The notes under the pieces were generated by a model. The model was given only the letters and a program-made list of their open reading frames with translations, made no database searches and was not told the DNA's origin. From positions 3,925 to 67,924 of the forward strand of contig CAMYMV010000002.1 in the NCBI GenBank assembly GCA_947259585.1: a stretch of 64,000 nt of DNA. Reading direction: 5' to 3'. This document shows positions 26,053-34,699 of the stretch, in pieces. The number at the start of each line of letters is the position of its first letter. Position 1 is the first letter of the stretch. Source of the stretch: an uncultured Gemmatimonadales bacterium. GTDB lineage: Bacteria > Gemmatimonadota > Gemmatimonadetes > Palauibacterales > Palauibacteraceae. The translations under genes were made by a program, and so were the position numbers.

Positions 26053-26769
26053 ATGCGAAAAGCGCGAAGCACCTGGCCTGCGATCTTGCGCCGTGGGGCG
26101 TCCGGCCCCGCGGGATGGCTCGGCTTCGCTCTGGTCGCCCTTCTGCTGATCCCTTCCATTCTCCCCAGCTGGGAACCTGGCTGGCGCAGGCTGGAGCTTG
26201 CTGCGCCCGATCCGCCGCCCACGCTCCTCATCATCGAGCCACCGCTGCTGGCCAAGCTTCAGACGCTTGCCGCGGGCCTGCGGGCCGAGATCGCGCTTTG
26301 TCTTTTCGGCTCTGTACAGGGTGACACCGCACGCCTCGACGACTTCCACATGCCGGAACCGACCCTCTCGACGGCCAACAAGTCGCTCGTTCGGCCCTGT
26401 CCGGAGAGGACGCTGGCCGTCTGGCACAACCACCCGCTCGACGGCACGTCCGGCTATTCGCTGAGGGGGACCTGGCGTACGAGCCAGCCGGCGCGGCAGG
26501 CGCACCGACTGTGCGTGCTGTCCAAGACGGACATTCAGACTTCGGTTCGGTTCAAGCATCCCTTCGTGATCATCGGCGTCGACCGCGACACCTGGTGTTG
26601 GTGGACCCGAGAGGAGGTCGAGCGCCTGGCCGAGAGCGGCGTCTGGCCGGGCCTTCCGGCTCCGGAGAGGCTGGTCACCCGGGATGGGGTGCCGTCATCG
26701 GAGGGACCGCTGGCCGGCCAGGGCGTGAGAAGAGGGAAGAACGGGCACAGCCTCGGCGCGCCTCAGTAA
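26053..26769 (+). CDS. Membrane-anchored hypothetical protein, possible JAB/MPN (RadC-like HNHP) metalloprotease fold
   Basis: GGGAGG RBS. N-terminal TM helix. WHNHPLDGTSGYS loosely fits the JAMM H-x-H...S..D motif with an upstream Glu. High GC3, so it is preferred over the overlapping antisense ORF 25798..26559. Confidence 0.4.
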   Translation: MRKARSTWPAILRRGASGPAGWLGFALVALLLIPSILPSWEPGWRRLELAAPDPPPTLLIIEPPLLAKLQTLAAGLRAEIALCLFGSVQGDTARLDDFHMPEPTLSTANKSLVRPCPERTLAVWHNHPLDGTSGYSLRGTWRTSQPARQAHRLCVLSKTDIQTSVRFKHPFVIIGVDRDTWCWWTREEVERLAESGVWPGLPAPERLVTRDGVPSSEGPLAGQGVRRGKNGHSLGAPQ

Positions 26770-26840
26770 CCGCGAACGCCCCCGCTCGACCGGCTCGGGG
26801 CGTTCTTGCCTTTCCGGGCCACAAGCCCGAGCCTTTCCAG

Positions 26841-27611
26841 ATGAGCCGGCCACTCATAGCCGCCAACTGGAAGATGCACCTCGGACGCGCGGAGGAGGCC
26901 CTCGGTCTCGTGCGTCGGATCCGGCACCCCCTGGGCAGGATCGACGGCGTGGAGGTCGTGGTGTGTCCGCCCTTCACGGTTCTGCCTCTCCTGGCCGAGG
27001 TGCTGGGGCCGTCGCCGATCGCGCTCGGTGCCCAGAACATGCACTGGGCGGAACGGGGCGCTCATACGGGGGAAGTCTCACCGAGCATGCTGGCCGGGCT
27101 CTGCCAGTACGTGATTCTCGGACACTCGGAGCGTCGCGCCACCGGCGGCTCGACGGAGGACGACGCCGCCATCAACCGGAAGCTGAAGGCCGCCTTCGGC
27201 GTCGGCCTGATTCCGATCGTCTGTGTCGGCGAGAGCGGCGAGCAGCGCGAGGCGGGCGCGACCGATGACGTCGTGCGATCCCAGGTCTCCCTCGCGCTGG
27301 CCGGGCTCGAGCCCGACCAGGCCCGCCGCTGCGTTATCGCTTACGAGCCGGTCTGGGCGATAGGCAGCGGCCGGCCCGCCACAGCAGCGGAGGCGAATCG
27401 CATCATCGCGTTGAGCGTCCGGGGGGCGGTGGCCGAGGGGTTCGGCGAGGAGGTGGCGCAAGCGGCGAGGGTCCTCTACGGCGGAAGCGTGCTTCCGGAC
27501 AACATCGCGGCCTTCACGGCCATGCCCGACATCGACGGAGCCCTGGTGGGCGGAGCCAGCCTCGGTCCCGAGTTCGTGGAGCTGGTGCTACGCGTTTCCG
27601 CCGAACGCTGA
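26841..27611 (+). CDS. tpiA: Triosephosphate isomerase
   Basis: AANWKMH and AYEPVWAIGSGRPAT signatures. 256 aa. The listed 366-aa ORF has a non-coding N-terminal extension. Confidence 0.95.
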   Translation: MSRPLIAANWKMHLGRAEEALGLVRRIRHPLGRIDGVEVVVCPPFTVLPLLAEVLGPSPIALGAQNMHWAERGAHTGEVSPSMLAGLCQYVILGHSERRATGGSTEDDAAINRKLKAAFGVGLIPIVCVGESGEQREAGATDDVVRSQVSLALAGLEPDQARRCVIAYEPVWAIGSGRPATAAEANRIIALSVRGAVAEGFGEEVAQAARVLYGGSVLPDNIAAFTAMPDIDGALVGGASLGPEFVELVLRVSAER

Positions 27612-27628: not shown

Positions 27629-28273
27629 TCAGGTCGAAGGCGCGCAGAGGACCGTCTCGAACGATAGATACGCGATGCGCCCGAGCGGCCCCCCCTCGTA
27701 GTCCGCATCGATACGGGCGTCGAGGATCCTGAAGAGACCGGATCCTACGGGCATCGCCGACAGCGTATGTCGGGCTCTTTCGATCCGATCCGCCGCTCGA
27801 TCGCCAGGCCACAGCAGGACATTCACGGCGGCAGCCATCGTTTCGTAGTCTTCATCGTTCAAGACGAACGAGAAAGACCGCTCGCTCATCTTCACGGCCG
27901 CTTCCGCCGATATCCCATAACCGGTGTCAATGTAGCGAGCGTTGGAGAAACGATATGGAGGCGTCGCGACCCAGGAGTATTCTTTCTGCCGCGTATCGGC
28001 GCTGCGTACCTCGATCGTCCAGCCGGGTGGATTGGGCGGGCTCTCGGGGGTGGGAGCGAGCCGGAAGAGGAGGTTCGGTGCGAACCGCGCCTCGAATCGC
28101 TCTCCGGCGACGACCTGGCCAGCCAGCTTGACCGTGTCGCAGGTCGCGGGCAATCGCTCCTGCGTCGTGGCCATGTCAGGCGCGGCCAGGCCCGCCACTA
28201 CAACGAGCAGGGCAGCAAAGTGGAGAGCCGAGGCCTCCTGCTTCGAGCCGAGGCGCCGGGCGTGGCGTATCAC
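27629..28273 (-). CDS. Hypothetical exported protein; last gene of the BMC operon (start overlaps the upstream BMC-P stop)
   Basis: Signal peptide ALHFAALLVVVAGLAAPDMA. ATGA-type overlap with 28270..28542. Confidence 0.5.
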   Translation of the reverse strand: MIRHARRLGSKQEASALHFAALLVVVAGLAAPDMATTQERLPATCDTVKLAGQVVAGERFEARFAPNLLFRLAPTPESPPNPPGWTIEVRSADTRQKEYSWVATPPYRFSNARYIDTGYGISAEAAVKMSERSFSFVLNDEDYETMAAAVNVLLWPGDRAADRIERARHTLSAMPVGSGLFRILDARIDADYEGGPLGRIAYLSFETVLCAPST

Positions 28274-28542
28274 TCTGCCAGAGTCACCTCGTCGACCACG
28301 CCGACGATGACCGCGCGTACTGCGCCCGGATCCAGGTCCAGGATCTGACGTGCGCCATTCCCTTCGTCGATCACCAGGACCGTGTCGCCGGGACCGGCCT
28401 GAGCCACGTCCACAGCGATGTCGTAGTCCCCGCTCTCCCGGCCGTCAAGGTCGAGCTGATCGACGAGCAACAGCCGTCGGCTCTGGAGGTGGGAGATCTT
28501 GATCGTAGAGACGACGGACCCCGCCACGCGGCCGATATACAT
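28270..28542 (-). CDS. BMC vertex protein BMC-P (EutN/CcmL/PduN family), paralog 3
   Basis: MYIGRVAGSVVSTIK...LLLVDQLD...VAVD..QAGPGDTVLV..G: canonical EutN_CcmL pentamer motif. Confidence 0.85.
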   Translation of the reverse strand: MYIGRVAGSVVSTIKISHLQSRRLLLVDQLDLDGRESGDYDIAVDVAQAGPGDTVLVIDEGNGARQILDLDPGAVRAVIVGVVDEVTLAE

Positions 28543-28544
28543 GG

Positions 28545-28865
28545 TCAGGCGTCCTCCGCCACGCGGTGCCAGGTAGCGGTCGGTCCGGGGGCGTCCCCCG
28601 CGGTGTCGACTTCATCCACGAGTCCCGTGATCGCCAGGTCCACCGGTACGAACACCTCCGGGAGCGCCTGGGCGCCCTCGCGACTGGCCACCATGAACAC
28701 CAGGTGGCCGGGACCCGCCTGGGCGGTGGCATCGGCGGCCACCTGGGGCTCGCCCACAGGACTCAGCTCACGGTCCAGCGGCTGAACGACGAGGAGCTTG
28801 ATGCCCGCGAGCCCCTCGTACTTTCGGGTCGCCACGACCGTACCGATCACGCGCCCGAACTTCAC
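28545..28865 (-). CDS. BMC vertex protein BMC-P (EutN/CcmL/PduN family), paralog 2
   Basis: MKFGRVIGTVVATRKYEGLAGIKLLVVQPLD...AADATAQAGPGHLVFM. Confidence 0.8.
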   Translation of the reverse strand: MKFGRVIGTVVATRKYEGLAGIKLLVVQPLDRELSPVGEPQVAADATAQAGPGHLVFMVASREGAQALPEVFVPVDLAITGLVDEVDTAGDAPGPTATWHRVAEDA

Positions 28866-28899
28866 CGCGCTCTCCCCGGCACGCCCTCGAGAGGTCGCC

Positions 28900-29490
28900 T
28901 CACAGGTCTCTCAACACGCGGGCGCCGAAGCGACTCGCGTCCGAAACGTTCTCCCACATCTCGGCGTGCAGCTGCGAGATGACGACCTGTCGCACGAGCA
29001 GATCCGGCCGCTCCAGCGCGCCGACGCCGATCTCCACGGCGGCTTCCACATCGGCCACGAGCCCGGAGTAGAGGACGATCCCCTTTCCGCCGAGGCCGTC
29101 GGCCAGGCGGACCTCGACCAGGCGAACATCGGCCCCTTTCACTCCCGCATCCGCGGCGTGGATCGCCGAGGCGACGGTGGTCGTCTCGACGACGCCCAGA
29201 GCGTCCGCGGTGCCTGGCACCCGGCCGCCGCCGATGGCGTCCACGACCTCGGAATGAACGTTGGGAAGGAACACGAGGTCGAGGACCGTATCTCCGCCTG
29301 CCTCGCGTCCCGCATCCAGCGACTCCTGGACTTCCGCGACGGTACCGCCGATCAGAACGAGATAACGGCCCGGCTGCACCGTCCCGGCCCGGATGACGGC
29401 GATATCGGCCCGCTTGACCATGGCGTCGGCCGCCTCGATGCCTACGGCGATGCTGCTGAAGTCGATGAGGGCGAGGGCCGGGTCGATCAT
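28900..29490 (-). CDS. BMC-T shell protein with tandem BMC domains (PduT-like, no Cys)
   Basis: Two successive PF00936-like BMC domains: [26 protein letters not shown]...GG, then ALGVVETTTVASAIHAADAGVKGADVRLVEV...GLGGKG. Confidence 0.75.
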   Translation of the reverse strand: MIDPALALIDFSSIAVGIEAADAMVKRADIAVIRAGTVQPGRYLVLIGGTVAEVQESLDAGREAGGDTVLDLVFLPNVHSEVVDAIGGGRVPGTADALGVVETTTVASAIHAADAGVKGADVRLVEVRLADGLGGKGIVLYSGLVADVEAAVEIGVGALERPDLLVRQVVISQLHAEMWENVSDASRFGARVLRDL

Positions 29491-30953
29491 ACGATTCGGA
29501 ACGAGTCCTTCAGCACGCAGCGGCGGATACGGCTGAAGCTGATCGGGTTGGTGATTCCCTCTCCCGTCGGGCTGGCGATCGTGAAGGAGCAGAAGCCCTC
29601 GCCGCCGTAGCCGAGTCCGTCGAAAGACGCGCCGTTCTTGACGAAGATGCTGCAGTCCATCTCACGTGCCATCCGGCTCAGATGGTCCAGGTTCTTGGAG
29701 TGCATGACGGCGGTGTGCCTGAACCCGTGCTCCGCGGGCTTGGCGAGATCGATCCCCTCGTCCGCGTCCCGAACTCTCACGAGCGGCATGATCGGCATCA
29801 TCTGCTCGGAGAAGACGAGCGGGTCGTCCCGGTCCACCTCGGCCAGCACCAGCCGCACATCATCGCTTGCATCGATTCCGATCTCGGCCAGAAGCACCCC
29901 CGCGTTCTTGCCGATAAAATCGGCGTTCATCGTGCCGTGCCGTCCGGGCGATGGCGTGTCCTTGAACAGGGAGCCACGCAGCCGCTCCAGCTGGCGGCCG
30001 TCGATCTCCACCGCCCCGTGCGCGCACATGGCCGCCTTGAGGTCGTCGGCGATCGAGTCGGCGGCGAAGACCTCCTTCTCGTCGGTGCAGATGATGTTGT
30101 TGTCCAGCGAGGCTCCGCGGACGATGTCGCGTCCGGCCTGCGCCAGATCGGCGGTCTCATCCACGACCACGGGCGGGTTGCCCGGGCCGGCGCAGATCGC
30201 GCGCTTCCCGCTCTGCATCGCCGCGCGGACGACGCCGATGCCTCCCGTGACCACCAGGAGGTTGACCCCCTTGTGTCCCATGATCTGGCCCGCTGTCTCG
30301 ATCGTCGGCTCGGCCGTGGCGCAGACCAGGTTGGCGGGACCTCCCGCCTCGACGACGGCGTCGTTGACCAGCTGAACCGTCAGGTTGGAGCACCGCTTGG
30401 CTCCGGGATGGGCGTTGAACAGGACCGCGTTGCCCGCCGCCAACATGCTGACAGCGTTGCACACCACGGTCGAGATCGGGTTCGTGCTCGGGATGATGGA
30501 GCCGATGAGCCCGTACGGCGCGAACTCGACCACCGTGAGCCCGCCGTCGCCGCTCCAGGCGCGCGTGTCGAGAAACTCGGTACCCGGAGCCTTGTTCGCG
30601 TTCAGGAGGACCTTCTCGATCTTGTCCTCGTAGCGACCCATTCCGGTCTCCGCCCACGCCTCGTAGGCCAGGCGTTGGGCGTTCTCGCGCATCGTCCGGC
30701 GGACGTGGGCGATCATCCGCTCGCGGACCGAGAGGGGAAGGTCCTGGAGATGCTCGTACGCCCGCCGCGCGGCGTCTACCGCCGAGTCAACGTCGGGAAA
30801 CAGGTTGTCGCCATGGCGCAGCTCGGTCGGGGCGGGTGGCGGCTCGACCGCCTGCTTGGGCTCGGGCCTCGGGCCGTGCCCGACCCGTTGACCCTGCCGC
30901 AGCTCGGACATCACACGTTCGATGACCGCGTCGATCTCGGCCGCTTCCATCAT
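29487..30953 (-). CDS. CoA-acylating aldehyde dehydrogenase (EutE/PduP family) with N-terminal encapsulation-peptide-like helix
   Basis: ALDH fold with catalytic Cys in [12 protein letters not shown] and a GAG nucleotide loop. First 20 residues ([20 protein letters not shown]) form an amphipathic helix, as in BMC-targeted PduP. Confidence 0.9.
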
Positions 30954-31249
30954 CCGTCACGAGCCTTGTCGTACTTCACGTCGCCGTCGACCTCGAGGGT
31001 GTCGACGATCGCCATGATCACGCCGTCACAAGGGCGCCGGTCCGTCATCTCGGTCTGTCGGGCGGCGCTACCCGTGGCGTACAACACGACCTCGCCCATG
31101 CCGGCTCCGATGGCGTCCGCCGCGACGCGGTAGCCCGACGTCTTCTTCCCTTCGACGTCGAGCTGCCTCAGAACGAGGAACTTCAGGCCCTCGAGAGAGG
31201 GTTCCTTACGTGACGCGACGAGCGTTCCGACCACTCTTCCTAGCAGCAT
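30950..31249 (-). CDS. BMC vertex protein BMC-P (EutN/CcmL/PduN family), paralog 1
   Basis: [31 protein letters not shown]...[21 protein letters not shown]. Confidence 0.8.
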
Positions 31250-31255
31250 CGGCCG

Positions 31256-31582
31256 TTACTTCTTCGAGGTCTTGGACGCCTGCCCTCCCTGGCGACCCAG
31301 CGGCAGGGTACGATCCACGTTGCCGTGCGGGCGCGGAATCACGTGAATGGCCACGAGCTCGCCGACCTTCTCCGCACCGCGGGCCCCGGCCTCGACCGCC
31401 GCCTTCACGGCGGCCACATCTCCGCGCACGACGGCGGTCACGTACCCTCCGCCGATCTTCTCGTAGGCAACGAGGTCTACCTTGGCCGCCTTAACCATGG
31501 CGTCCGCGGCCTCGACCATCGCCGGATAGCTGCGCGTCTCGATCATGCCCAGCGCTTCGACCGCACCGTACTCCTCAGCCAT
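31256..31582 (-). CDS. BMC-H hexameric shell protein (PduA/EutM/CcmK type)
   Basis: Canonical BMC domain: [58 protein letters not shown]. Confidence 0.9.
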
Positions 31583-31669
31583 TCGTCCCTCCCGACGTGG
31601 GTTGTTTCCTCATGCTCCACACATCATCCAGTACTTGCTTCAGTTATTGCTTCAGATCCAGGTCGTGCA

Positions 31670-32308
31670 TCAGGTCCGTCGCTTCGTATCCACCACCCGT
31701 CCTTCGACGCCCTCGATGGCGGCGACGGCCGCTCCGTATCCGGCCATGATGTCTCGCTCCTCGCCGCCCAGGTACACCCGCCCGAAGCTTCCGAACGCGC
31801 GGACATCCAGGATGTTGATGTCCGCTTCCTTCTCTGCCTCGTTGGCGGCGAGCGACGCGTATCCGGCCGGCTCCACCTCGAGGACGTAAAGGGTCTGGCC
31901 GGCCAACAGCATGTGGCCGAAGCGCATGCGGTTGACCAGCTGTACCTGGTGGGCGTCGACGTGACGGATGATCTGGCTCGACACGACCCTCGGCTTGATC
32001 CGGTCCGATTCCTGGACCTCCAGGGCCTGCAGGATCGCCGCGCCCGCCGCCCGGACTTCCGCCTGTATTTCGTGGTGGACCTCCAGCAAGCCGAACAGGC
32101 GCTCGACGATCTGCATCCCGGGCCGGACCCGGGTGGATTTGAGCGCGATGTCGGTGATCCGGTTGATCTCGATTCCGGGCGAGATCTCAACCCAGAGTGA
32201 CGTGTCACCCGGAAGCGGGAGGAATCCGCGCGCCACCGTTCCCAGGTATGCCGCGTGCTGCGGCTGGAGGCTGTCGAGAAAAACGTAGGTGCGGAGATCA
32301 ACAGTCAT
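31670..32308 (-). CDS. Probable permuted tandem-BMC shell protein (EutL/PduB-like BMC-T)
   Basis: Two BMC-like half-domains: [20 protein letters not shown]..., and [56 protein letters not shown]. They resemble the EutL C-terminal repeat (ATYGIDAALKSADVQLATY). Lacks the PduL RHIH motifs and class II aldolase motifs. The assignment is an inference. Confidence 0.55.
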
Positions 32309-32317
32309 GGGAGCTCC

Positions 32318-33187
32318 TCACGAGTCAGTTCCCTCCACGATCTTCACGCTCGCACTGGCGCCGATTCGGGTGGCGCCGGCTTCGACCATTCTTTGCACGT
32401 CCTCGCGGGTTCGAATCCCGCCGGACGCCTTCACGCCGATCTTTGGCCCGACCACGCGACGCATGAGTGCCACGTCTTCCGCCGTCGCGCCTCCGGGGCC
32501 GAATCCCGTGGAGGTCTTCACGAAGTCTGCGCCGGCGACCTTGGCGAGCTGGGAGGCCGCGACCTTCTCATCGTTCGTGAGCAGTGCGGCTTCGATGATC
32601 ACCTTCAGGATACCCCCACCGGCGTGGACCGCCGTGGCGACGGAGGCGATGTCATGCTCCACGAGCTCGTAGTCACGTGACTTCAGCGCCCCGACGTTGA
32701 TCACCATGTCGACCTCTTTGGCGCCGTCGCGCACCGCTTTCTGCGCCTCGAACGTCTTCGCCTCCGTGGAGGTGGCGCCGAGCGGAAAGCCGACGACCGT
32801 GCAGGTGAGCACCTCGCTACCCTTGAGGAGATCGGCGCACAGTTTCACATGGGATGGGTTCACGCAGACCGACGCGAAGCCGTGCTTGCGCGCCTCGTAG
32901 CACAGCTGCGCGATCTCGTCGTGGGTCGCGTCGGGCCTCAGGAGCGTGTGGTCGATGAGATGGCTCAGGCTCCCGTCGGCGGGCACGATGCCCAGGGTGC
33001 TGGCGACCCGATCGGCGCCGGCCTTGACCACCGGCTGCACTCGATCGACGTAGTTGCGTCGTGAGAGCGGCGTCTCGAGGCCCGATGCCTCGCCGCCGAC
33101 GTCCAGACGGCCCTCCTCGACGAGGACCATCACCTCGTGCGTGATCTGCTCGATGATGCGCTCCAGCGTCGCCTCGTCCAACTTCAT
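32318..33187 (-). CDS. deoC: Deoxyribose-phosphate aldolase (DERA) with ~75-aa N-terminal extension (putative encapsulation peptide)
   Basis: Core is collinear with DERA ([20 protein letters not shown], catalytic Lys in [20 protein letters not shown]). N-terminal [26 protein letters not shown] is amphipathic and absent from free-standing DERAs. Confidence 0.9.
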
Positions 33188-33230: not shown

Positions 33231-33980
33231 TCATGCTCTTAGGAACCGACGCTCGATGTCCATGATCTTCCCCACGCGCCGGGCGTGGCGCTCGCCGCCG
33301 GAAGGCGTGCGAAGCCAGGTCTCGACGATCCGCCGGCTCAAGCTCGGGCCGGTCAGGCCGGCGCCGAGCGTCAAGACGTTGGCCGCGTTGTGCTCCCTGC
33401 TGTTGACCGCCGTGGCCTCATCGTAGCACATCGCGGCTCGGATACCGGGCACCTTGTTCGCGGCCATGCAGGACCCGATCCCCGCGCCGTCCACCAGGAT
33501 TCCCCTCCACGCCTCGCCCCGAGCCACCAGTTGGGCCACCGACAGAGCGATATCGGGGTAATCGACCGATTCCGTGCTGTCGGTGCCGCAGTCGAGCACC
33601 TCGTACCCCAGCTCGCGTATCTGCGTCTTGAGACCCTCCTTCAGCTCGAATCCGCCGTGATCCGCTCCGATGGCGACGCGCTTGGACCCGGCGGGCCCGG
33701 AGGAGGCCGCCTCGAGGGCTGCCGGGAGTGGCCGTACCGGAGCGGATGAGCCCGCACCTCCGGCGGGCAACAGCGTGATCCGTCGCTCCATCGCGGCCTG
33801 ACGGGCCAGCGGAGTGACCATCGGGCTGGCCGGAAGCATGAACTCGCCGCCGGCAGGGACGTCGTGCAGGTCCTGCTGAGTAATCAGGGTCCGACCAGCC
33901 GGCCCTTGAGGATGGGTCTTCCCCACGGTCCGGTAGACGACCCGGCGAACCATCTCGCGGACCCGCTGCTCGTCGGTCAT
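33231..33980 (-). CDS. rpiB: Ribose-5-phosphate isomerase B (RpiB/LacAB family) with ~100-aa N-terminal extension
   Basis: C-terminal 150 aa match RpiB ([52 protein letters not shown]). N-terminal extension contains an amphipathic helix [17 protein letters not shown] plus a conserved-looking [39 protein letters not shown] segment. Start taken at MTDEQ to avoid overlap with tetR. Confidence 0.8.
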
Positions 33981-33982
33981 CG

Positions 33983-34699
33983 TCACCAGTAGCGCCATCC
34001 GGAAGCGTCAGCCGTTTCCGCCGGTTCCGCCGCCTCGACCGGTTCCAGAAACGAGTCTCCCTCCGCCGACCTGAACGCCTCCGCGGGTTCGCGGCGTGAG
34101 TAGCTCGCCAGCAGCCGGAAATAGGAGCGAAGCTGGGCCACGGCGGCGTCAAACGGATCCACGGAACCGGCCGCCCGGGCCTGCATCACTCCCCCCTCCA
34201 TCACGGCAAGGACCAATCGGGACAGGCTCTCCCGGTCGAGTTGGGCCGGGAGTCGGTCATCGGCGGCCGCGAGCCATGTCTGAACGCGGCCGGTCCATGC
34301 CGCGAAGTATTCGTTCATGAGAGCTCTCGCCCTCGGTTTTCTGTCGCCGAGCTCCAGAGCGAGGTTGCCGACGGGGCACCCTCTCGTGCATCCGCTGACC
34401 AGCAGTCCTCGCCGGTAGACCTCCAACAGGGCGAAAACCCGCTCGATCGGGTCGGAGCTCGCGCCCTCGGCAGGCAGGAGGATAAACGGCTCGAGAAGAG
34501 CGAGATGCCGCTCCAGGACGCCGATCAACAGGGCGTCCTTGCCCGGGAAGAAGTGATAGAGACTGCCGCTGTTGACGCCCGCGCGACGCAGTATCGTGGA
34601 GATACCCGTCGCCGAGTAGCCCTGCTCGTGGAAGAGTCGGGCCGCTTCCTCCAGAATCCGCTCTCTGGTCTCGGATTTCGGCGTCATTTGATTGAGCAA
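33983..34699 (-). CDS. TetR/AcrR family transcriptional regulator, first gene of the BMC operon
   Basis: N-terminal HTH RERILEEAARLFHEQGYSATGISTILRRAGVNSGSLYHFFPGKDAL. Likely true start is the ATG at 34687 (MTPKSE...); the listed start is a TTG at 34699. Confidence 0.85.
   Translation of the reverse strand: MLNQMTPKSETRERILEEAARLFHEQGYSATGISTILRRAGVNSGSLYHFFPGKDALLIGVLERHLALLEPFILLPAEGASSDPIERVFALLEVYRRGLLVSGCTRGCPVGNLALELGDRKPRARALMNEYFAAWTGRVQTWLAAADDRLPAQLDRESLSRLVLAVMEGGVMQARAAGSVDPFDAAVAQLRSYFRLLASYSRREPAEAFRSAEGDSFLEPVEAAEPAETADASGWRYW

Follow-up and report, generated by a model that had tools for sequence, protein, structure and literature searches.

In a 64,000-nucleotide stretch of DNA of an uncultured Gemmatimonadales bacterium of the Palauibacteraceae (GenBank assembly GCA_947259585.1, contig CAMYMV010000002.1, positions 3,925 to 67,924; the whole stretch is called the window below), an operon for a bacterial microcompartment (BMC) comprises an RpiB-family gene whose product carries an N-terminal extension of about 100 residues. 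Within this extension lies a 42-residue segment with the motif TPLAR (the TPLAR module), which is very probably a discrete, folded, BMC-specific domain homologous to the N-terminus of EutQ and the C-terminus of PduM. By this homology the module would be a shell-docking one and, together with a helix resembling an encapsulation peptide (EP) in front of it, it would make RpiB an adaptor between cargo and shell, a role that we regard as rather probable. The family itself, known as the RPI of sugar-phosphate-utilisation (SPU) loci, has been described before, as have its extension and EP helix (PMC11585597). New with respect to the searchable literature is that the "linker" of the extension holds a conserved, folded, and duplicable domain, the same as that found in the shell-association region of EutQ and at the C-terminus of PduM.

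The original prediction, an RpiB with an extension of about 100 residues and a canonical part from residue ~105 on, was confirmed with regard to the gene at 33231-33980, but this gene lies on the minus strand, the plus-strand translation of these coordinates being riddled with stops; both peptide segments quoted in the prediction are present. Pfam LacAB_rpiB (PF02502) is matched at residues 108-245 (E=1.6e-51, model positions 1-138 of 138), and therefore ca. 100-107 residues precede the canonical domain. NCBIfam agrees on the RpiB family (NF004051, 166.6 bits against a cutoff of 135), as does the match to the RpiB structure 3HE8 of the PDB (E=2e-44), while the solved RpiBs start at the domain itself, without an extension of the SPU RPI type. 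Residues are numbered throughout according to the 255-residue reading from the ATG at 33998. The likelier start is, however, the second in-frame ATG at 33980, corresponding to Met7 (MTDEQRV…), because the upstream TetR gene terminates exactly there (TGA-cg-ATG at 33980-33985 on the minus strand, where the ATG is the RpiB start) and because 85 of 121 homologues have the corresponding Met as their first residue; the start at 33998 was dropped on these grounds. The TGA-cg-ATG arrangement also suggests translational coupling of the TetR regulator with the first cargo gene.

The TPLAR segment, described in the original prediction as conserved-looking, is about as conserved as an enzyme core. In a set of 112 homologues with identities to the query below 80%, the top-residue frequency in the L-V-T-E… and TPLARQ parts of the module is ~0.9-1.0, on par with the catalytic core, while variability is seen at residues 27-36 and 79-105; the module alignment (A1) has T, P, L, Q, and A as invariant residues. 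In the full-length AlphaFold2 (AF2) model the predicted local distance difference test score (pLDDT) of the module (38-78) is 76-85, with the linkers on either side below 50. Modelled alone from a 69-sequence alignment of diverse instances, the module attains a mean pLDDT of 96.9 and a predicted template-modelling score of 0.74, and has a compact predicted β-α-β-β-α-β topology. Its copy number varies: a single copy is found in 86 of the 121 RpiB homologues, two copies in 3, and three in tandem in the other 32, with a period of ~79 residues, the multi-copy proteins being mainly those of ~405 residues from Anaerolineales, encoded in otherwise identical SPU loci (L004, L064, L070, L076). Moreover, the module does not depend on the helix, as among diverse RpiB representatives 28 combine the two, whereas in 19 there is no helix and the module stands at the extreme N-terminus. 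One such helix-less RpiB gene is followed by a gene for deoxyribose-phosphate aldolase (DERA) with an EP-like extension, which is suggestive only, the contigs being short. Since the segment is conserved, folded, tandemly copied, and found independently of the helix, it is not linker-like, and among orthologous BMC loci the extension is, in this part, clearly neither unstructured nor unconserved.

In the three-copy proteins (e.g. P0012, P0025, and P0033) the duplicated unit consists of the module and a conserved spacer, ALSIVP..VS.E.IE..GRHF.PPQR, which is conserved between units 2 and 3. The possibility that this spacer is a degenerate EP helix was rejected, as no relation is detectable (E~2).

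The module occurs on many other microcompartment proteins, as the original prediction had supposed from the look of the motif. An exhaustive search of 1.84 billion protein cluster representatives with the 42-column profile (A1) gave 268 matches at E<=1e-3, among them 37 at E<=1e-10, while a word-indexed homology search with the same profile returned 19 candidates, none of them scored, and gave nothing usable. In the window itself the hidden Markov model (HMM) of the module has a single match (E=1e-21), the next best in six frames having E>3. The carriers comprise RpiB, class II aldolase, PduL-type phosphotransacylase (PTAC), EutQ-like cupin, PduM-like and flavoprotein-like proteins, and small stand-alone proteins, and the location of the module changes with the carrier: it is N-terminal in the class II aldolase P0123 and in the EutQ-like cupin P0222, C-terminal in the PTAC P0211, and again C-terminal in the flavoprotein-like or PduM-like proteins P0229, P0236, P0258, P0260, and P0185, which have ~230-260 residues and an EP-like helix at the N-terminus. 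The stand-alone proteins of 80-140 residues (e.g. P0221, P0217, P0247, P0251, and P0270) consist of the EP-like helix and the module only and are candidate minimal cargo-shell adaptors. This shuffling, together with the confident fold of the isolated module and the one to three tandem copies in orthologues, bears out the idea of a module rather than a simple linker. Another class II aldolase, P0130 (294 residues), has a helix and module cassette (…LVTETEV…VTPLARQVALERNVTL…) that seems to be inserted midway into the Aldolase_II domain, which Pfam matches in two stretches; the insertion could be real or an assembly chimera.

In every informative case, that is, wherever the contig was long enough, the genomic context of a module carrier is a BMC locus. 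The class II aldolase P0123 is encoded in an SPU locus that also holds a module-bearing RpiB (L007), the PTAC P0211 in an EUT locus with EutB and EutC (L008), the cupin P0222 between a BMC-H gene, a EutJ-like gene, and a BMC-T gene (L010), and P0260 next to a EutJ-like gene (L009). The stand-alone protein P0221 is encoded at 788-1054 of locus L006 between shell genes, namely a gene for a CsoS1D-like BMC-T and those for BMC-P and BMC-H. No Pfam family is dedicated to the module, and a profile search of the PDB found no solved structure containing it, the sole match being a spurious one to a low-complexity repeat in ELYS.

The N-terminal part of EutQ is the experimentally CHARACTERISED region to which the module is linked. 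EutQ of E. coli MG1655, whose sequence begins KKLITANDIREAHARGEQAMSVVLRASIITPEAREVADLLGFTI, was taken for comparison. The module HMM aligns to its residues 4-38 with E=3e-4 for the RpiB-only model and E=2e-6 for the broadened one, while hhalign aligns the module to residues 2-47 (43 columns, 89.5% probability, E=2e-6). The two share the pattern L-[IV]-T-x-x-D…G…[IV]-[IV]-T-P-x-A-R-[DEQ]-x-A, both are part of an N-terminal extension and have a flexible linker after them, and a EutQ-like cupin with a canonical copy of the module exists (P0222). EutQ differs in having a 3-residue insertion, and its segment is described as two helices, H1 and H2, not as β-α-β-β-α-β. In EutQ the module is located at the extreme N-terminus and is followed by the EP-binding helices H3/H4 and the cupin, whereas here it follows the EP helix and precedes the RpiB domain. 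In Salmonella, EutQ residues 9-21 and 22-41 (H1/H2) are needed for shell association, and the Δ9-41 protein loses the shell and stays with the cargo aggregate, while the EutC and EutE EPs are bound by residues 62-99 (H3/H4), and the Δ62-99 protein stays with the shells; residues 1-99 are sufficient for targeting of GFP (Yang et al. 2025, PMC12487888). The EutQ N-terminus is also needed for the EutM pull-down, and Pdu is stated to have no EutQ homologue (both Held et al. 2016, PMC4827028). The shell association of EutQ H1/H2, in Salmonella with EutM/EutL, is known from deletion mutants, whereas that of the RpiB module would follow from homology.

Of 69 module instances, 46 match PF15953 (PDU_like, the PduM family) over its last ~40 positions, with the best E=4e-6. 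The module of the window matches positions 115-152 of 153 (E=0.11, 12.9 bits against a cutoff of 27), and weak C-terminal matches are also given by the NCBIfam models NF011957 (PduM; positions 132-159 of 162, 12.6 bits against a cutoff of 179) and TIGR02536 (positions 161-203 of 207). The likeness to PduM and to the "eut_hyp" proteins of TIGR02536 thus lies in their C-terminal ~40 positions, and flavoprotein-like carriers related to PduM start with an EP-like helix (P0236), while the PduM body of ~110 residues is absent here. Membership of this RpiB in the PduM family was rejected, as only the terminal module matches, and below the threshold. PduM has been placed between the N-terminus of PduB and the cargo and implicated in the linkage of shell and cargo (Yang et al. 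2022, PMC9132943). No paper connecting the EutQ N-terminus, the PduM C-terminus, and the SPU RPI "linker" was found in the searchable literature, which is not proof of absence.

The helix in front of the module was predicted by AF2 at residues 10-24 (pLDDT ~66 in the full-length model). It is strongly conserved, with R14, V17, R18, V20, and V21 invariant in 64 homologues and a top-residue frequency of ~0.9-1.0 in the MVRRVVYRT block, comparable to the catalytic core (the 112 homologues given above). Being a terminal helix followed by a disordered, poorly conserved linker before the next domain, it has the make-up of an EP, in agreement with the EP-bearing extension already described for SPU RPI (Dwyer et al. 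2024, PMC11585597). Of the amphipathic helix originally proposed upstream of the canonical domain, the helix is borne out by the model; as to amphipathicity, its hydrophobic moment of 0.43 (shuffle mean 0.31) is not significant in a simple shuffle test, being reached by 22% of the shuffled sequences. Both linkers vary among homologues in sequence and in length. In common with the classical EPs at the N-termini of PduP, PduD, and EutC (Aussignargues et al. 2015), residues 9-26 form a terminal helix of ~16-18 residues with a disordered linker. In contrast to them, the helix here has a sequence (MVRRVVYRT[LV]G) whose conservation across phyla is unusual, and it is accompanied by a second, folded targeting element, absent from the classical EPs.

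The RpiB domain itself has lost a catalytic residue. In the alignment with 3HE8 the canonical …ICGTG… corresponds to …VDGAG…, so that the catalytic Cys (Cys66 in E. coli, Cys65 in C. thermocellum) is absent and Asp170, invariant in 64 homologues, takes its place; C177 (in GIGSC), seven residues further on, is likewise invariant. The protein is possibly no longer an isomerase, judging from this sequence, although the subfamily may instead use other chemistry or another substrate. The same Cys to Asp substitution is found in SPU RPI, which has little or no ribose-5-phosphate isomerase activity, forms a ~1:1 complex with DERA upon co-purification, and has been proposed to owe its retention to encapsulation and not to catalysis (Dwyer et al. 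2024, PMC11585597). Published SPU RPIs (Sutter et al. 2021, Dwyer et al. 2024; pfam02502) and the RpiB described here also share the gene family, the locus type, the DERA neighbour, the N-terminal extension with its EP helix, and loci with AldDh, a BMC-P triplet, and a CsoS1D-like BMC-T.

The N-terminal extension may therefore be pictured as a two-part targeting cassette of an EP helix (~9-26) and a folded module (37-78) separated by disordered linkers. The module would most likely bind shell proteins, BMC-H and/or BMC-T, on their lumenal side, the cargo core would be engaged by the EP helix, and the body of RpiB would bind DERA, the protein thereby acting as a cargo-shell adaptor; shell valency would be higher where an orthologue has two or three modules in tandem. 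The idea of an adaptor fits with the replacement of the catalytic Cys by Asp170, with the SPU locus having no EutQ or PduM gene, and with the multi-module variants, which would raise valency. Shell binding by the module, which would follow from homology, and the adaptor function are both inferred. The published description assigns residues ~25-100 differently, as an EP followed by a linker of ~75 residues, unstructured and conserved to a lesser degree (Dwyer et al. 2024, PMC11585597), in which no separate function would fall to the TPLAR segment. In keeping with that description, variability and low model confidence do mark residues 27-36 and 79-105; the 42-residue core between them, however, is conserved like an enzyme domain, is confidently folded, and occurs in up to three tandem copies, and it is found on unrelated BMC proteins and on RpiBs lacking the EP helix, which leaves the description hardly credible for this core. 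Another proposal, that the module is a docking or regulatory element like the peripheral-subunit-binding domain (PSBD, E3_binding) for a soluble partner or for the attached enzyme, with no direct role in encapsulation, is very improbable. It draws on weak matches of 25 of 69 module instances (alignment A4) to the first ~20 positions (~2-20) of the 36-position PF02817 model, the best with E=0.003, and on the TPLAR(D/Q)xAxExxI helix, which resembles the first helix of PSBDs. Only half of the model is matched, far below the threshold, four β-strands are predicted, whereas the PSBD is all-helical, and the carriers are confined to BMC loci, some of them standing alone without an enzyme. PSBD membership was therefore rejected, and the likeness of the TPLAR[DQ]xAxExxI helix possibly reflects convergent use of a similar docking helix.

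The main rival to shell docking, which we hold to be unlikely on balance, is that the module is a core-organising domain that binds other cargo, for instance DERA, its EP helix or that of AldDh, and nucleates an enzyme condensate in the manner of EutQ H3/H4. Condensate scaffolds, CsoS2 and CcmM among them, typically have multivalent repeats, of which there are here up to three copies. RPI and DERA co-purify 1:1 (PMC11585597), and PduM, which ends in the module, is found with the cargo and not with the shell when residues 1-37 of PduB are deleted (PMC9132943). The mapping in EutQ argues against this: its EP-binding site lies at residues 63-99 and not in the module-homologous residues 2-47, addition of an EP peptide leaves the nuclear magnetic resonance shifts of residues 2-62 unchanged, and cargo association persists in the Δ9-41 protein (PMC12487888). 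Moreover, the module occurs in EUT, SPU, and other loci with differing cargo, so that a common partner is more likely a shell protein. It is the localisation of PduM that keeps this rival alive, and it also weighs against shell docking, as the module could bind an extension of a shell protein, or cargo, instead of the shell body. Several other points weigh in the same direction. Shell binding would follow entirely from the homology to EutQ H1/H2, for which the match is short (43 columns, 30% identity) and the probability of 89.5% falls short of certainty, and the evidence on EutQ in turn comes for the most part from seeing where deletion mutants colocalise in vivo. All the matches to PF15953 are below the Pfam gathering score, an Asp at the Cys position is no proof of inactivity, and the hydrophobic-moment test of the EP helix, not being significant, was not used as evidence. 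Finally, four full-length loci, L045, L047, L075, and L086, carry a module-bearing RpiB without BMC-H or BMC-P genes nearby. These loci, from some Anaerolineae and Chloroflexia, have no BMC-H/P genes within 10 kb and are with or without DERA and BMC-T, which suggests split or satellite loci.

The coordinates of the gene, of its parts, and of the surrounding operon are collected in Table 1.

Table 1. Features of the RpiB-family gene and of the SPU microcompartment operon in the window
Feature	Position	Strand	Basis or remark
Open reading frame (ORF)	33231..33998	minus	255 residues
RpiB-family gene of the SPU microcompartment operon	33231..33980	minus	likely start ATG 33980, alternative upstream ATG 33998; ORF, Pfam, start-codon comparison
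EP-like helix, residues 9-26, including MVRRVVYRT	33921..33974	minus	AF2, conservation, published EP assignment
Variable linker 1, residues 27-36	33891..33920	minus	low conservation; pLDDT <50 at residues 21-35
TPLAR module of 42 residues, residues 37-78 (begins LITQQDL)	33765..33890	minus	alignment, AF2, profile search, PF15953, hhalign to EutQ
Variable Ala/Pro/Gly/Ser-rich linker 2, residues 79-105	33684..33764	minus	low conservation, variable length; pLDDT <50 at residues 81-103
RpiB/LacAB catalytic-fold domain, residues 106-255	33234..33683	minus	Pfam, NCBIfam, PDB 3HE8
Asp170 codon, at the catalytic Cys position of canonical RpiB	33489..33491	minus	alignment to 3HE8
TetR-family regulator, directly upstream of the RpiB gene	33983..34699	minus	Pfam TetR_N and TetR_C_13; same arrangement in L002
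DERA, SPU signature enzyme, ~70-residue N-terminal extension	32318..33187	minus	Pfam DeoC at residues 78-277; TIGR00126, E=1e-83
Rest of the BMC operon	28270..32308	minus	Pfam; syntenic loci L002 and L004
CsoS1D-like BMC-T	31670-32308	minus	
BMC-H	31256-31582	minus	Pfam
BMC-P	30950-31249	minus	Pfam
Acylating AldDh with N-terminal EP-like helix	29487-30953	minus	Pfam
Tandem BMC-T	28900-29490	minus	Pfam
BMC-P	28545-28865	minus	Pfam
BMC-P	28270-28542	minus	Pfam

RpiB is the second gene of the operon, whose order is TetR-RpiB-DERA-BMC-T-BMC-H-BMC-P-AldDh-BMC-T-BMC-P-BMC-P, and it adjoins a DeoC-type aldolase in a locus with BMC-H, BMC-T, BMC-P, and AldDh, i.e. the SPU locus type of Axen 2014 and Sutter 2021. 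The same gene order is found in a Gemmatimonadales metagenome-assembled genome (MAG; L002), with an RpiB 89% identical, and in an Anaerolineales MAG (L004), where a GntR regulator stands in place of TetR. Among the species-representative genomes scanned, this type of RpiB is encoded by at least 546, in Gemmatimonadota, Chloroflexota, Acidobacteriota, and Verrucomicrobiota. In 61 of the 80 genome loci fetched, BMC-H/P genes are present in the fetched stretch, the remainder being mostly truncated contigs. In the operon of the window no PduL/PTAC gene was found, and this SPU locus has no EutQ or PduM gene.

Three cargo proteins of the operon, DERA, AldDh, and RpiB, have N-terminal helices; in DERA the extension, residues 1-70, is encoded at 32978-33187 (minus). 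The first shell gene (31670-32308, minus) matches PF00936 weakly (E=7e-4, below the cutoff), but its orthologues are assigned to PF27545 CsoS1D_N, and therefore its product is regarded as a CsoS1D-like double-stacking BMC-T. In several loci the gene for such a BMC-T lies right after the RpiB-DERA pair or beside module-bearing genes. The last BMC-P gene is followed by a minus-strand ORF of 214 codons (27629-28273), whose product has a signal-peptide-like N-terminus and matches neither Pfam nor NCBIfam. Triosephosphate isomerase is encoded convergently at 26511-27611 on the plus strand, and its longest ORF has the TIM domain at residues 114-359; in a close MAG relative the TIM gene directly adjoins the operon and the 214-codon ORF is not called.

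Attachment of cargo to the shell of metabolosomes is an open question of microcompartment biology. A tentative extension of the shell-docking idea, which we put forward as possible though doubtful, is that the module is a near-universal metabolosome shell-docking domain, so far unannotated, which would unite the EutQ N-terminus, the PduM C-terminus, SPU RPI, the PTAC, aldolase, and flavoprotein-like carriers, and the stand-alone mini-adaptors. In SPU compartments, lacking EutQ and PduM, a catalytically degenerate RPI, its valency tuned by one to three modules, would then be the dedicated core-shell adaptor, a metabolosome counterpart of CcmM/CcmN and CsoS2. The comparison with these carboxysome scaffolds is a working analogy only: in both cases short binding modules are repeated on flexible linkers, cargo and shell are bridged, and a catalytically degenerate enzyme domain is reused as a scaffold, but there is no sequence relationship, the repeats here number only one to three, and the compartment is a metabolosome and not a carboxysome. 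If EutQ, PduM, and SPU RPI do have this domain in common, a single structural explanation would be at hand for the linkage of shell and cargo across EUT, PDU, SPU, and other types of compartments, the retention of an apparently inactive isomerase in SPU compartments would be explained, and the published description of an unstructured linker, as well as the frequent mis-annotation of the start site, would be corrected. The module would also provide a compact, well-folded, and possibly portable tag for cargo loading, which could aggregate less than the amphipathic EPs.

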